This document shows, one piece after another, positions 5,721 to 62,318 of a stretch of 64,000 nt of DNA. The translations under genes were made by a program, and so were the position numbers. The stretch is from IMG/VR virus record IMGVR_UViG_3300018495_000103; one strand, written 5' to 3'. A model generated the notes under the pieces. The model did no database searches. It worked only from the letters and a program-made list of their open reading frames with translations, and was not told the DNA's origin. Origin of the DNA: a virus. Each line of letters begins with the position of its first letter. Position 1 is the first letter of the stretch.

Positions 5721-5749
5721 ATTATACCAAAATTTTTATTATAAGTCAA
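5721..5749 (-). promoter_or_regulatory. sigmaA-type promoter (TTGACT-N17-TATAAT) for DNA polymerase gene
   Basis: Conserved cassette on the minus strand followed by AAAGGA RBS. Confidence 0.6.
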
Positions 5750-5751
5750 CC

Positions 5752-6942
5752 TTACGGTCTCACCCAAACGAGTTTTTCACTGGCACGGGTTGCCGCAGTA
5801 TATGCCCAGCGTGCATGCTCGGTCTTTTCATAAGGAAAACCTTCTTCATAGACCATTACCTTACCCCACTCAGAGCCTTGTGCTTTATGACAAGTAATAC
5901 CATAGGCATAGGCGAATTCGAATGGAGGGTCAGGACATTTAGGATTTTTACGCATCTGGAACTCTTGCTTACCAGTTAAGAATTTCTCACCAGTAGTCAA
6001 AGAGGTATAATCGACGGGAATATAATTAAATACATCACCATTCTCGTCAATCATGTTTGTATATAAAATAGGAATTTTTTTCTCACTAATCCAGAATGGA
6101 AGACTCATATCATAACGGTCAGTGCGCTGGATAACTCCAATAGTGCCATTAGTTAAAGGAGCTGGGTCTACAACTCCATTAGAGAAGAACTCCCATTGAT
6201 TTCTCAAACTAATAATCTTATCACCAACTGCGGGTTCGGGTCCGAATCCTTTAATCTGGCGCATATTCATATTAATCGCATTTCTCTTTGCGTTAGTCGC
6301 ACAAAGAATTTGGTCTGCCCAATCGTACATTCCAGTTACGATTTCTTCTGGCTTTACAAACATTACTTGTTGACCGGATGCAGGGAATTCGTTAAGAGGC
6401 TTGCCTTCACGAATCCACATAGAGAAACGAATAATTTCACTATCATATGCCTGTCGCATAATTTCATCCAAGAAAATATGCGGATGGTCAAGTACATGAT
6501 TATCACTATCCTTGTCGATGGGAGGTAACTGGAAGGGGTCGCCGCACGCAATAACATGAATGCGATGTGACAACAATCTCAACCACATTTCTTTTGGAAG
6601 CATAGAAACCTCATCAACAATAATAACTTCCAACCCATCATCCAAGGAGGGTTTTGGTTCAAATTTAAAAGTGCCATTTGGCATGGGTTTTGCTTTATAA
6701 AGCAATTTGTGAGCAGTAAAAGGATTAGGACACCCCTTCTGCTTTAACACTTGTGCGGCCTTACCAGTATATGCCACATAACACACTTGCTCGGGTTCTA
6801 GACCAAGGGCCGCAATGATAAACTTAATCAATGTAGACTTACCTGTGCCAGCGTAGCCGGAGATACAAGTGTAGGCTTCATGCGACTTATAACGAGAAAC
6901 CGCAATCTTTAATCCCTCTTCTTGTTTAGCTGTTAAAATCAT
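5752..6942 (-). CDS. SF1B DNA helicase (Dda/RecD/PIF1-like)
   Basis: Walker A GYAGTGKST, Walker B IIVDEVSM, CGDPFQLPPI motif. TAA stop. Confidence 0.8.
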   Translation of the reverse strand: MILTAKQEEGLKIAVSRYKSHEAYTCISGYAGTGKSTLIKFIIAALGLEPEQVCYVAYTGKAAQVLKQKGCPNPFTAHKLLYKAKPMPNGTFKFEPKPSLDDGLEVIIVDEVSMLPKEMWLRLLSHRIHVIACGDPFQLPPIDKDSDNHVLDHPHIFLDEIMRQAYDSEIIRFSMWIREGKPLNEFPASGQQVMFVKPEEIVTGMYDWADQILCATNAKRNAINMNMRQIKGFGPEPAVGDKIISLRNQWEFFSNGVVDPAPLTNGTIGVIQRTDRYDMSLPFWISEKKIPILYTNMIDENGDVFNYIPVDYTSLTTGEKFLTGKQEFQMRKNPKCPDPPFEFAYAYGITCHKAQGSEWGKVMVYEEGFPYEKTEHARWAYTAATRASEKLVWVRP

Positions 6943-7217
6943 TTTATATCATCCTCCTGGTCATGCGCATGAACCAGTTGCTCAAGAGTCATATAGAAAT
7001 GTTGTTTACGACTATTCATACGACGCTTTTCTTCAATTGGGTCAGTGCGCTCAACACGAGCCTTATATATGGCTAATTCATCACATACCTCAGCAAATCT
7101 GAAGTAAATACTATCAAAGCCAAAATCAAGCCTATCTTTACAGACTCGATTTAATTCGTCTCGGTCAACATAAACCTTATTTAATTTTTCTACTAATTTT
7201 TGTGCTTCTCTATTCAT
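6939..7217 (-). CDS. hypothetical protein (92 aa)
   Basis: ORF track. TGA stop. Conserved promoter immediately upstream. Confidence 0.5.
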   Translation of the reverse strand: MNREAQKLVEKLNKVYVDRDELNRVCKDRLDFGFDSIYFRFAEVCDELAIYKARVERTDPIEEKRRMNSRKQHFYMTLEQLVHAHDQEDDIK

Positions 7218-7239
7218 TTACATTCACCTTTTTATTTTT

Positions 7240-7268
7240 ATTATACCAAAATTTATATTAAAAATCAA
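7240..7268 (-). promoter_or_regulatory. conserved promoter TTGATT-N17-TGgTATAAT
   Basis: Same cassette. Upstream of 6939..7217. Confidence 0.6.
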
Positions 7269-7716
7269 CGGTAAAATCCCATAAGGGTCGCTGTTGTATA
7301 AAGTCCTCACTATCAAGGTCGACAAAACCAGGTAAAAATGGATTTTGCTCAATTTGGGAAAAAATTTCTAAATCCCCTTTTTGATTTGGGTTTTCGGTCT
7401 TCTCGTCCAAGGCCGACCGGAGCTCGTCTATTTTTATTTCATCTATATCAATTATTGCTTGTAATGCAGCATCTCGACTTTCACACTCATATCGCAAATC
7501 ATGCAAGTCATCTTTAATAGCAGTAATCTCACTACTATGATATTCTAGACGAGAAAGAACTTCATTCATTCTTTTAATTGCCTAAGTCATTTCATAAGCC
7601 GTAACCCCAGTAGATGACATAGCTCGAGCCAAATCTTGTATTTGACTTGAAAATTGATTCATTGATGGTAGTTCATATACGGTGCCATTCACCGCAATTG
7701 AATGTAACTGTGACAT
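7258..7716 (-). CDS. hypothetical protein (152 aa) with one in-frame TAG
   Basis: Track ORF 7258..7569 extends upstream through TAG to an ATG at 7714-7716 with GGAGAAAA RBS: MSQLHSIAVNGTVYELPSMNQFSSQIQDLARAMSSTGVTAYEMT*AIKRMNEVLSRL... Confidence 0.5.
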
Positions 7717-7744
7717 CTTATTTTCTCCTATAAATGAAAATAAT

Positions 7745-7771
7745 GGGAACATAATATTAAATTATGTTCCC
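7745..7771 (-). terminator. rho-independent terminator hairpin (GGGAACATAAT...ATTATGTTCCC)
   Basis: Perfect inverted repeat after the stop of 7780..8667, U-rich tail on the minus strand. Confidence 0.55.
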
Positions 7772-7779
7772 TATTTATA

Positions 7780-60522: not shown

Positions 60523-60878
60523 TACCTATATCTCCTTTCCAGAGCTTCAAGAATTTCAATGGCAGCTTCGCACAGGTCAATGTAGCTTAGTCCACGGAAT
60601 GCAGTGTTAGGACAGTTATTAGAAGTTTCTCTTGCAAAAATTTCTTCTACAAGCTCACACAGATAGCCAGCTTTATCACCATCATGGTCATAAACCTGGC
60701 TTAAAAGACGAGAAGTTATAGATTTAATTTCCCAATCCAAACCCAGCTCACCAAATCCCCACAGCTTACCTTGGACAGTAATCCAAGTTTTAGCCGCTTC
60801 ATCGTCGGCACAAATATTATAATAAGTACAGGGCTTTTTGCCCGCACGCCAAATTTCAAAAGCATATTGCTTAGGCAT
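60522..60878 (-). CDS. hypothetical protein (118 aa)
   Basis: Start at Met-17 (GGGGAG SD). Confidence 0.4.
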   Translation of the reverse strand: MPKQYAFEIWRAGKKPCTYYNICADDEAAKTWITVQGKLWGFGELGLDWEIKSITSRLLSQVYDHDGDKAGYLCELVEEIFARETSNNCPNTAFRGLSYIDLCEAAIEILEALERRYR

Positions 60879-61152
60879 TAGGTTCTCCCCATCCTTCCTC
60901 AAAATCTTCTTTGAGTACATACTCAACTAATACTTTATTATCTCCACAAAGCATAGTCTGTAAAATGACAACATCTTTAACACAGTATCTATTAATGAAT
61001 AGCTTAGGCTCATCATCAAATAGAGAACTATTAGCATCAAGATTGCGGATAATCATTTTGCTCTTGGGGTGGGATTTGCGGAGCGTACCGCTGACCGCAT
61101 TTACATGATAGTTAAAATGGCTACCGCCAACATGAACATTTGTATTAAGCAT
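60871..61152 (-). CDS. hypothetical protein (93 aa)
   Basis: ORF track. Confidence 0.4.
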   Translation of the reverse strand: MLNTNVHVGGSHFNYHVNAVSGTLRKSHPKSKMIIRNLDANSSLFDDEPKLFINRYCVKDVVILQTMLCGDNKVLVEYVLKEDFEEGWGEPNA

Positions 61153-61450
61153 CAGTTGTTTCCTCCACCCATTGATTATATTTATCTAACATTAGTTGCC
61201 AATAATTGGCTCTTTTCGTTAACGTTTGCCGAACGATTTCAACAGCTCGCTTCTTAGCAGCTTCAAAATCTTCAGCATTAATATGAACTTTAATATCGGT
61301 AAAGCCTCTATCATACCACCAAACAGTGTATCTATTTTCACCAATTTTGGCGACAGAAATTTCACATTTATTCCTATTAGTAGGTTTGCCCCAAATGGCA
61401 GACCAACATTCAAAGCCTTCGGGTCGATAGTCATGATATTCCCATTTCAT
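61145..61450 (-). CDS. hypothetical protein (101 aa)
   Basis: ORF track. Confidence 0.4.
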   Translation of the reverse strand: MKWEYHDYRPEGFECWSAIWGKPTNRNKCEISVAKIGENRYTVWWYDRGFTDIKVHINAEDFEAAKKRAVEIVRQTLTKRANYWQLMLDKYNQWVEETTDA

Positions 61451-61451
61451 A

Positions 61452-61811
61452 TTACTTTACCTCCGTCCAGCCATTTCGCTGAATAATTGCCTGCATTCTC
61501 TGTCTTGCCACAGGATTAGCAGAATGAATACGAATAGGAACATTGTGACCAGTAGCTTCCAGCCAGTCCAAGAGCTTATAACCTTCGGGAATACCTTCGC
61601 CTAGGTCATTGTCGCAAGAAACTTCTTCGATATTGAAAACTGCGAAGCACTTTTCAAACAGCTCTCGCTCCATATAACCCATGATATACTGCTTCCAGAG
61701 GAAGTCAGTTTCTTTTTTACAGCGGATAATCTCGCAGATGGCGCCATCAACGTCATAAACTCGAATATATCCGGCCGGTGCGGGACGCACATCATCCATC
61801 CAAATCTTCAT
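61452..61811 (-). CDS. hypothetical protein (119 aa)
   Basis: Start at Met-9 (GGAGGATAA SD). Confidence 0.4.
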   Translation of the reverse strand: MKIWMDDVRPAPAGYIRVYDVDGAICEIIRCKKETDFLWKQYIMGYMERELFEKCFAVFNIEEVSCDNDLGEGIPEGYKLLDWLEATGHNVPIRIHSANPVARQRMQAIIQRNGWTEVK

Positions 61812-61913
61812 TGAGATTATCCTCCGTTTCTCCAAAATAACAGCCGTCTCGGCTTTCTTTCATTTCACAGTCTTCCCAATAGACACATTGAGAACAAATC
61901 ACAAAGTCTCCCA

Positions 61914-62258
61914 TTATTCCTCCCGAATCTTAAAAGGACACCAATCGGGCACGGGAGGCATTTCGCTATCATACTCAATGTATCCAGTGATTTTGCGAGG
62001 TCCATTGGAAGTCTGACAGGCATTACAGTAGTAATCAAAAGCGAATCCAGCTCTTGGAGTGCGAGTTTCCTTAACACAAGGACATTCGTCGCATCGGCCA
62101 ACGCCGATTACTACCATTGCGGCAGGCTCGAAAGAATGGTCGGAACAGTGACCCTTATCGCACTTGTATCCTTCAACATCGCACTTTTTCAGTTTACAAT
62201 AAATTTTATTGCTATCCTCATAAGGAACACAATGCTTACACAGGACTCCTCTTTTCAT
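61914..62258 (-). CDS. Cys-rich hypothetical protein (114 aa)
   Basis: Start at ATG 62258 (AAAGGAAG SD), just downstream of a conserved promoter. Many CxxC pairs. Confidence 0.4.
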   Translation of the reverse strand: MKRGVLCKHCVPYEDSNKIYCKLKKCDVEGYKCDKGHCSDHSFEPAAMVVIGVGRCDECPCVKETRTPRAGFAFDYYCNACQTSNGPRKITGYIEYDSEMPPVPDWCPFKIREE

Positions 62259-62289
62259 AACCATCTTCCTTTCTATTCTTTGTATATAT

Positions 62290-62318
62290 ATTATATCATA
62301 TTTTTTATAAAAAATCAA
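62290..62318 (-). promoter_or_regulatory. conserved promoter TTGATT-N17-TGaTATAAT
   Basis: Upstream of 61914..62258. Confidence 0.6.

Follow-up and report, generated by a model that had tools for sequence, protein, structure and literature searches.

In the 64,000-nucleotide stretch of the virus record IMGVR_UViG_3300018495_000103 (IMG/VR), hereafter the window, nearly the same promoter-like sequence stands again and again in front of genes, in many cases directly behind a GC-rich hairpin. The window is the unidirectional early region of an uncultured ruminant-gut jumbo phage and covers 64 kb of a genome of about 200 kb; all of its genes are located on the minus strand. The recurrence of the element raises the question of what it does, which sigma factor reads it, and what keeps its copies alike. 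We consider it probable that the elements are composite terminator-promoter cassettes at which host sigma-A initiates transcription, and that a sigma factor encoded by the phage is able to read the same promoters. The model is grounded in the following observations: the sequence elements themselves, their excess over chance, their strand and intergenic placement, their conservation across genomes, the covariation of a hairpin, and one relocated module.

Promoter motif and fused hairpins

A motif search with TTGAYW-N17-TATAAT returned 20 matches in the window, exclusively on the minus strand and spanning positions 5721-62318, against an expectation of 0.18 +/- 0.41 matches (maximum 2) in dinucleotide shuffles. 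One match, at 17427-17455 (minus strand), was rejected as a member of the family; it lies within the DHFR coding sequence, its matrix score is below the threshold, and it is regarded as a chance match. The other 19 are the minus-strand intergenic sites reported in the initial annotation, and all of them are located just 5' of a ribosome-binding site and a start codon. The spacer is exactly 17 nt long at all sites. TGn was found at 15 of the 20 sites and the full TRTG at 10. Since the TGn sits within the 17-nt spacer, the pattern as it had first been written, TTGAYW-N17-TGnTATAAT, has no match in the window. A -35 element with at least four of six matches to TTGACA, a spacer of 17 +/- 1 bp and a TATAAT are present at every site. 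The proposed sigma-A-type consensus with an extended -10 was therefore confirmed, specifically with the -16 element (TRTGn) of Gram-positive bacteria: the TATGn-TATAAT of the cassette matches the TRTG -16 consensus (PMC6570832). An independent repeat finder returned the cassette as the dominant repeat family of the window. The distance from site to site is 262-7303 nt (median 2.9 kb), and the -10 is followed by the start codon after a median of 32 nt in the wider family.

A weight matrix made solely from copies of other genomes found the same sites again, with zero hits on the plus strand and zero in shuffles. Nine canonical copies, scoring 56-65 bits, are located at 37.8-62.3 kb and are nearly identical across about 48 nt, with the consensus TTGATTTTTATAAAAAAATATGWTATAATATATATAKAAAG; like all sites, hairpins and genes of the window given below, they are on the minus strand. 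They comprise P62318 (62290-62318; TTGATT-N17(TATGA)-TATAAT, 56.6 bits), which heads genes w003-w010; P58850 (58822-58850), in front of a metallophosphatase gene; P57443 (57415-57443); P54857 (54829-54857), heading the phage sigma gene and a gp5.9-like gene; P53634 (53606-53634), heading an RNase T-like exonuclease gene; P47334 (47306-47334), in front of nicotinamide adenine dinucleotide (NAD) salvage genes; P43908 (43880-43908), which has the best score (64.6 bits) and heads the NAMPT and NadE genes; P39741 (39713-39741); and P37852 (37824-37852), which has no hairpin and abuts the stop codon of the upstream gene. The variant site P49952 (49924-49952; 31 bits, more exactly 30.9) has its TG shifted by 1, carries no hairpin, and is the promoter of a relocated vault-like gene unit.

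The nine intergenic copies at 5.7-34 kb are looser and reach 21-47 bits, with P33997 below 12. The latter (33969-33997) reads TTGACT, has no TGn and is below the matrix threshold. Further copies are P28589 (28561-28589), heading gyrB; P22392 (22364-22392; TTGACA), heading the gene of an NAD-dependent ligase; P20346 (20318-20346; TTGACA); P20084 (20056-20084; TTGACT); P16983 (16955-16983), an intermediate site of 47 bits in front of a winged-helix regulator gene; P14571 (14543-14571), heading a DnaB-like helicase unit; P7268 (7240-7268), heading an SF1 helicase unit; and P5749 (5721-5749), heading Pol III alpha. Thus, the near-identity that had been ascribed to all copies holds for the nine canonical ones and does not extend to the variant at 49952 or to the looser sites. 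The canonical copies cluster amid NAD-salvage, RNA-repair and unknown genes, whereas the looser copies head replication genes.

The claim that a GC-rich hairpin and U-tract precede many of the promoters was borne out, with eight strictly fused and two nearby hairpins among the 19 sites. In the fused cases the hairpin ends 0-2 nt before the -35, and folding of the 55 nt 5' of each site gave -17 to -24 kcal/mol. These hairpins are located at 58850-58880 (P58850; -21.9 kcal/mol), 57442-57476 (P57443; -23.5 kcal/mol), 54856-54889 (P54857; -20.8 kcal/mol) and 14572-14592 (P14571; -22.8 kcal/mol), and also at 53634-53659 (P53634) and 43909-43937 (P43908), both detected by folding, the terminator scan and the strict test, at 39742-39764 (P39741), detected by folding and the strict test, and at 47337-47360 (P47334). 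One nearby hairpin, followed by T8, is positioned at 62330-62356, 13 nt upstream of P62318, and has a homolog in the related stretch L068; the other, with a T-run, is at 28621-28650, about 32 nt upstream of P28589. The stems have 9-16 bp with 5-7 GC pairs, and the T-runs after them extend into TTGATTTTT; in this way, the -35 and the first part of the spacer also provide the U-tract. At most fused sites the hairpin follows the upstream stop codon by 10-38 nt. A terminator scan of 43-62.9 kb returned the cassette hairpins as the strongest minus-strand terminators, and the sole strong minus-strand terminator without a cassette in this interval was at 62780-62757.

The association extends beyond the window. 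Of the 212 unique cassette instances in the window and its relatives, 75 passed the strict test for a GC hairpin that ends 0-6 nt upstream of the -35, as compared with 105 of 3000 random positions, which corresponds to a 10-fold enrichment. The fusion is nearly confined to the TTGATT form (70/153 versus 5/59, p = 7e-8), so that TTGATT is found in 70 of the 75 strictly fused copies. For the predicted terminator behind the vault-like gene (the hairpin fused to P47334), a comparison of six orthologs revealed compensatory double changes in five of nine pairs and no broken pair. Judged by this covariation, which keeps the pairing in all six, the hairpin structure itself is under selection.

An AT-rich, UP-like stretch upstream of the promoters, as described in the initial annotation, was not recovered: the position 5' of the -35 in the conserved copies is taken by the GC-rich hairpin, and the AT-rich run that had been quoted is the spacer. 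Because the hairpin fills the space 5' of the -35, the A+T fraction there amounts to only 0.44-0.60 in all but one of the nine canonical copies; the exception is P62318, with 0.72, where it reflects the T-run of the terminator. The window mean is 0.59. Apart from P62318, A/T-rich upstream DNA was found solely at P20084, P28589 and P33997, and the other eight canonical copies are without an UP element. P20084 is the sole site with an A-rich UP-like upstream tract.

Conservation across relatives and relocation of a module

The exact 35-mer of the cassette was found in 72 IMG/VR stretches and in 27 stretches of metagenome-assembled genomes (MAGs). Between the window and its relatives the cassette is 94-100% identical over 48-76 nt, whereas the adjoining coding DNA is 65-88% identical. 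The conserved block, as determined from 122 class-A-like copies, is about 48 nt long: it begins with the T-run ahead of the -35 and extends to about +12; beyond that point the conservation fades into a purine-rich leader and a Shine-Dalgarno sequence. Since the 35-mer is exact in relatives whose genes are 40-88% identical, it is kept by selection and does not owe its identity to recent spread.

In deep relatives, with Pol III alpha about 51% identical, a canonical cassette is located 5' of the genes for Pol III alpha, helicase, DnaB and the winged-helix protein, while the window has looser versions at these orthologous positions, P5749 in front of Pol III alpha being one of them. The canonical form is therefore the archetype of the family and, on the evidence of orthologous position, the copies at 5.7-34 kb in the window are diverged members of it and not a separate invention. 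The strong constraint offered by the initial annotation as an explanation of the near-identity thus stands as a functional constraint; the regulator named as its source is only one of three candidate causes, beside RNA polymerase and the overlap with the terminator.

The cassettes also lie at the borders of a unit that has changed its place. The unit (47337-49952) consists of a promoter, a gene with vault-shoulder domain (47373-49889) and a terminator, and it occupies another cassette site in some relatives. According to gene-order maps, it is located 5' of w029 in the window and in the related stretches L041 and L036, and 5' of w003/w004 in L068, L039 and L021/L055. The stretch L025, which belongs to the same contig as L068, has no vault-like gene at the site used in the window. 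In L068 the order is a hairpin like that at 62356-62330 of the window, a promoter, the vault gene, a hairpin like that at 47360-47337, a promoter, and then a leader and gene like those downstream of 62318. The arrangement in L068 thus corresponds to one unit cleanly inserted, each of its two junctions lying within a cassette. Among the large rearrangement junctions, three of three had a cassette. That cassettes mark crossover points for module shuffling is demonstrated in these few clear cases; the frequency of recombination at the cassettes is something that we infer.

Two further observations concern this unit. The relocated gene encodes an 838-amino-acid protein that matches the shoulder and repeat domains of the Major Vault Protein (PF11978, PF17795) and has no match in PHROG. 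In L025 (approximately 4380-4770 of the stretch; IMG/VR contig 3300045988_079139), the vault-like unit is replaced by a gene for 91 amino acids, which is followed by its own hairpin and cassette; by eye, the N-terminus of the product has the look of a lipoprotein signal (MKKIFALILALALCLSLCACGNE).

Proposed mechanism and alternative readings

According to the model, the GC-rich hairpin would terminate the transcript of the upstream unit, with a U-tract encoded by the T-run and its continuation in the -35 (TTGATT) and the T-rich beginning of the spacer. A sigma-A-family holoenzyme would then bind TTGATT, the TRTGn -16 element and the perfect TATAAT at 17-bp spacing. Transcription is predicted to start about 7 nt past the -10, within ATATATA. 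The resulting leader would be rich in purines, about 25-30 nt long and provided with a strong Shine-Dalgarno sequence, and would lead into the first gene of a unit of 1-8 genes. Because each copy brings a hairpin, a promoter and a leader, each unit would be insulated and driven by the same standard part. The reader at the onset of infection would most likely be host sigma-A. The phage sigma has canonical contacts and is itself made from a cassette, and so it probably reads the same promoters later. Finally, as a block of about 48 nt that is nearly identical at many sites and in many genomes, the cassette would also be a substrate for homologous recombination, and promoter-gene-terminator units could be excised, inserted and swapped between cassette sites, as in the promoter-early stem-loop (PeSL) cassettes discussed below.

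The phage sigma is a SigA-like protein encoded at 53880-54782, directly downstream of cassette P54857. It comprises regions 1.2-4 without region 1.1, has a short acidic N-terminus, and is about 50% identical to Firmicutes SigA. In E. coli numbering, it retains Q437, E458, E585, R588 and Q589 and carries the substitutions W433Y, T440S and H455N, which are conserved in close relatives. This makes it a candidate reader of the cassettes. The initial annotation had attributed the sites to host RNA polymerase with sigma-A: the sigma-A type of the promoters stands, but the host as the only reader does not, since the phage's own sigma keeps the canonical residues for contact with the -10 and -35.

Several points weigh against the proposed model. 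A terminator is present at only 8-10 of the 19 sites. Promoter activity, terminator activity, timing and the sigma factor in use are all predicted from the sequence, and host sigma-A as the reader is not established because the phage encodes a sigma of its own. Canonical sigma-A contacts explain neither the near-invariant T-run/A-run spacer nor the ATATATAKAAAG block after the -10. As to module shuffling, cassettes were present at 39 of 141 synteny breaks (28%) versus 10 of 54 conserved adjacencies (19%), which is not a significant difference (p = 0.20), and at the site that the vault gene occupies in the window, comparison with L025 showed no cassette at the left junction in the latter. Since there is no significant overall enrichment at breaks, the claim of shuffling is limited to the documented cases.

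The presence of a phage sigma allows a different interpretation, namely that the TTGATT cassette is a dedicated promoter class of this sigma (a phage "middle" class) and not a host early promoter; the conserved spacer and the block after the -10 would then be extra specificity determinants read by the phage sigma. The lack of region 1.1 and the DNA-contact substitutions conserved among close relatives are in line with this. So is the promoter usage of distant phages. Sigma-based searches for relatives, with a single sequence or an alignment, returned only close relatives, while degenerate peptide-pattern scans reached distant sigma factors. Many low-GC viral contigs of 100-190 kb found in this way encode a sigma of the Y433 type that is 40-52% identical to the phage sigma, and many of these distant sigma-bearing contigs are dense in TTGATT-N17-TATAAT with the same T-run/A-run spacer; TATGn is replaced by TATTA in some of the lineages. 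TTGATT often far exceeds TTGACW on such contigs (7:0, 8:1, 6:0, 9:2). Hairpin fusion is rare in the distant lineages (6/34), and therefore terminator overlap cannot account for TTGATT there.

Two promoter families were observed on each of the contigs L118 (IMG/VR 3300028591_000112) and L119 (3300028797_000121). The first has TTGATT and the T-run/A-run spacer, is without TG, and is found on the block that holds the sigma gene. The second has TTGACA, A-rich UP-like tracts and TRTG, and is found on a block of small genes that is transcribed divergently. The start region is similar in the two families (ATATATGTAA / TATAATGTAATAA), and a tendency toward two families is also measurable in the lineage of the window. 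The second, classical family in L118 and L119 suggests that there may be two differently read classes, in favour of a dedicated promoter class.

However, such a class faces a bootstrap problem: the sigma gene itself has a TTGATT cassette in front of it in most lineages. Region 4.2 (ERIRQIE) and region 2.4 are canonical, and no residue change explains the T at -31/-30. Among relatives that share the identical 35-mer, position 584 is K or R and position 455 is N or H, and the users of the 35-mer include contig 3300045988_112927, the sigma of which is only 52% identical. In addition, the cassette is already an excellent sigma-A/TRTG promoter. A dedicated class of the phage sigma therefore appears unlikely to us. 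A narrower proposal, that the substitution R584K explains the T at -31 of TTGATT, was rejected: relatives with R584 use the identical cassette, and it also fails on the 52%-identical sigma, which keeps H455 and R584 and likewise has the identical cassette. The FSTYATYW peptide was seen on only 3 of 13 cassette-bearing contigs of at least 100 kb, a count that says little on the co-occurrence of sigma and cassette because these contigs are partial.

A broader reading of the distant contigs is that the TTGATT cassette of about 48 nt, from the -35 through the T-run/A-run spacer and the -10 to the start region, is a portable part of a wide group of large uncultured low-GC gut phages, read specifically by their own SigA-like sigma without region 1.1 or by a conserved factor that recognizes the spacer. 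We put this forward tentatively and would not expect it to hold. If the reading is true, it would mean semi-orthogonal transcription beside host-type TTGACA/UP promoters, with the same part serving as the crossover site that moves units within and between phages.

The spacer offers a second alternative to the host sigma-A model, or rather an addition to it, as the two are compatible. With about 1-1.9 bits per position, the spacer is conserved far above the spacer of a normal sigma-70-type promoter. The near-invariant spacer (TTTTTATAAAAA...) and the block after the -10 could accordingly form the operator of a phage or host regulator that switches the whole cassette regulon. The commonest spacer contains the perfect 12-bp palindrome TTTTTATAAAAA; a gene for a winged-helix MarR/TrmB-like regulator (16557-16910), a candidate binder if the spacer is an operator, is located right behind cassette P16983; and the spacer pattern persists where the sigma is only 41-52% identical. 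On the other hand, the point at which T switches to A moves by 1-2 nt among the common variants TTTATAAAAAAA, TTTTATAAAAAA, TTTATTAAAAAA, TTTTTAAAAAAA and TTTCAAAAAAAA. Thus, neither the dyad nor its centre is maintained, and a compositional or structural requirement fits better than a fixed operator. The role of the T-run as the U-tract of the terminator accounts for part of its conservation. Consensus beyond the canonical elements is known from T4 early promoters too (PMC2988021). We regard the operator as a little less likely still than a dedicated class of the phage sigma.

Recent spread, the other explanation of near-identity given in the initial annotation, would make the copies a recently amplified mobile repeat (similar to a miniature inverted-repeat transposable element, or spread by gene conversion) that owes its identity to youth and not to function; this was rejected as highly improbable because, although nine near-identical copies are present in one genome and copies within a contig are slightly but significantly more alike than those between contigs (p = 0.001), the effect is tiny (7.25 within versus 7.89 mismatches per 48 nt between genomes), the sequence is exact at orthologous positions in deep relatives with 40-57% protein identity, including those with Pol III alpha about 51% identical, the copies are co-directional with the genes (257 versus 27 by strand) at a fixed distance from the start codons, and neither terminal inverted repeats nor target duplications were seen in the copies.

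Comparison with known systems, gene content and putative TAG recoding

The closest parallel to the cassettes of the host sigma-A model is provided by the PeSL cassettes of T4-type phages (Arbiol et al., 2010, PMC2839356; Comeau et al., 2014, PMC4122927). Both are repeated composites of a consensus early promoter of the sigma-70 type and a stem-loop terminator that end in a Shine-Dalgarno sequence and a start codon, and both occur in tens of copies per genome upstream of accessory genes. PeSL cassettes flank insertions, deletions and replacements between related phages, and the same was seen here in a few clear cases; a relocated unit with both junctions in cassettes is what the mini-circle model of PeSLs predicts.

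The differences are also considerable. The lineage studied here is unrelated to T4-type phages, with Pol III alpha, DnaB, GyrA/B and an NAD-dependent ligase (as far as the window is concerned), and it encodes its own SigA-like sigma. Its promoter is of the Gram-positive type with the TRTG -16 element, in a host that is probably a Firmicute, and lacks the AT-rich/UP-like upstream region. PeSLs have five stem-loop placements, whereas the architecture here is fixed, with the stem abutting the -35 and the -35/spacer serving as the U-tract. Identity is tighter and deeper, comprising about 48 nt including the spacer across polymerases that are about 51% identical. Mini-circles and reporter activity belong to PeSLs, while the present cassettes are known from sequence alone. 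By analogy, then, the cassettes would work like PeSLs, outside the T4-type family.

To our knowledge, T4-type phages of Gram-negative hosts were the only ones for which composite terminator-promoter cassettes with a role in both insulation and recombination had been described. A similar logic in an unrelated and abundant lineage of ruminant-gut phages suggests a general design principle of large lytic phages that was reached independently. Across hundreds of contigs of uncultured phages, the cassette motif could be used to annotate early units and the borders of modules, and the cassette could serve as a compact strong promoter-terminator part for Firmicutes. In addition, a spacer conserved to this degree, in a phage with a housekeeping-like sigma of its own, poses a testable question on promoter recognition.

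The "uber" early promoters of T4, with UP, -35, TGn and -10 elements (Hinton, 2010, PMC2988021), likewise combine all sigma-70 recognition elements with extra consensus regions, and the presumed role in both cases is to out-compete host promoters for RNA polymerase. However, T4 relies on UP elements, which the conserved copies here lack. T4 has no housekeeping-like sigma, and its early promoters are not generally fused to terminators.

Another comparison is offered by the Bacillus subtilis phage SPO1, the early promoters and host-takeover module of which were reportedly described by Stewart and colleagues in 1998 and 2009. As is probably the case here, SPO1 is a large lytic phage of a Gram-positive host with a tightly packed early region, in which many short operons, each with a strong sigma-A promoter, are bounded by terminators and phage sigmas are made from early transcripts. 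Its sigmas gp28 and gp33/34 are divergent and use quite different promoters, whereas the sigma found here is housekeeping-like. We know of no description of near-identical promoter copies including the spacer, or of cassettes as crossover points, in SPO1. The early genes of SPO1 are sigma-A dependent (PMC13401047).

An analogy with integron gene cassettes was drawn for PeSLs by Arbiol et al. (2010; PMC2839356). It applies here insofar as a short repeat flanks single-gene units and would allow their excision or insertion at equivalent sites. Unlike integrons, the cassettes have neither an integrase nor an attC structure; units would be exchanged by general homologous recombination, and each unit has its own promoter.

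The gene content of the window fits the early/middle class proposed in the initial annotation, with short operons for replication, nucleotide and NAD metabolism, RNA repair and counter-defence. Genes of DNA metabolism encode Pol III alpha, an SF1 helicase, RecJ-like and DnaB-like proteins, an NAD-dependent ligase, GyrA/GyrB, thymidylate synthase and DHFR. NAD salvage is represented by NAMPT, PRPP synthase, NadE, NMNAT-like, Sir2 and nicotinamidase-like proteins, and RNA repair by an RNA ligase, a Thg1-like protein, phosphoesterases and a nucleotidyltransferase. A gp5.9-like RecBCD inhibitor, the vault-shoulder-domain protein and the SigA-like sigma are also encoded.

No nucleotide match of the window to deposited phages was found, and the exact sigma protein is present on contigs of about 200 kb. 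Bacterial-genome matches to the cassette are all ruminant-gut MAG bins, mostly of Clostridia and also of Treponema, Methanobrevibacter and Alistipes. As this taxonomy is inconsistent, the bins are probably mis-binned phage contigs. The host is probably a Firmicute. Scans of the window for tRNAs and Rfam families found nothing.

Some of these gene sets deserve closer description. At 38787-47280 there is an extended NAD module with NAMPT, PRPP synthase, NAD synthetase, an NMNAT-like cytidylyltransferase, Sir2 and an isochorismatase/nicotinamidase-like protein, which presumably resembles the NAD-reconstitution pathways of phage counter-defence. The RNA repair-type set (50632-52050, 55263-56153, 56300-57040, 57919-58809 and 59284-60171) includes an RNA ligase, a Thg1-like guanylyltransferase, two metallophosphoesterases and a nucleotidyltransferase, most of them in cassette-headed units of their own. 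Just past the sigma gene lies the gene of a 77-amino-acid protein (53645-53878) with a match to the RecBCD inhibitor family of T7 gp5.9 (phrog_6234; PF25708); it is predicted to be co-transcribed with the sigma gene from cassette P54857.

In-frame TAG codons interrupt conserved domains in the window (DHFR, PhoH-like and the ORF at 7258-7752) and in the relatives L016 and L033. When the TAG at 17282-17280 of the DHFR gene (16980-17477) is read through, two fragments become a full match (1-159 of 159, 150 bits). In the same way, extension of the PhoH-like gene at 32117-33226 to 31976 shifts the end of the Pfam match from 156 to 198 of 205. As a stop, TAG is used by only 3 of the 57 open reading frames (ORFs) of at least 100 amino acids. 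In relatives, there are four ORF pairs of the same protein and frame (DnaB-like, RecJ-like, w080 and PhoH); in every case what separates the two ORFs is a single TAG, never TAA or TGA. A suppressor tRNA was not found in the window. Together, these sequence features suggest recoding of TAG in the phage lineage, as in genetic code 15, and unusually in genes of the early region. TAG recoding is known in gut phages (bioRxiv 10.1101/2021.08.26.457843; PMC9523058).

Finally, a few segments of the window stand apart. Between P20084 and the thymidylate synthase gene, about 1 kb (approximately 18650-19700) holds only ORFs of 45-50 amino acids, two of which end in TAG; this is either a region of low coding density or one of TAG-fragmented genes. 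Another stretch, of about 500 nt (62343-62843), is poor in ORFs; it is located between the stand-alone terminator at 62780-62757 and the hairpin that precedes P62318. A segment of 73 nt in it (62659-62731) is 75% identical to part of a coding sequence (7360-7432). The stretch has no Rfam match and might be the remnant of a gene or a non-coding RNA. An SPFH/flotillin-like protein is encoded at 34118-35626. In the middle of the early-type region, and without a cassette of its own, the gene at 29567-31900 encodes a 777-amino-acid cell-wall hydrolase with M15 peptidase, phage tail lysozyme, amidase_2 and SH3 domains.

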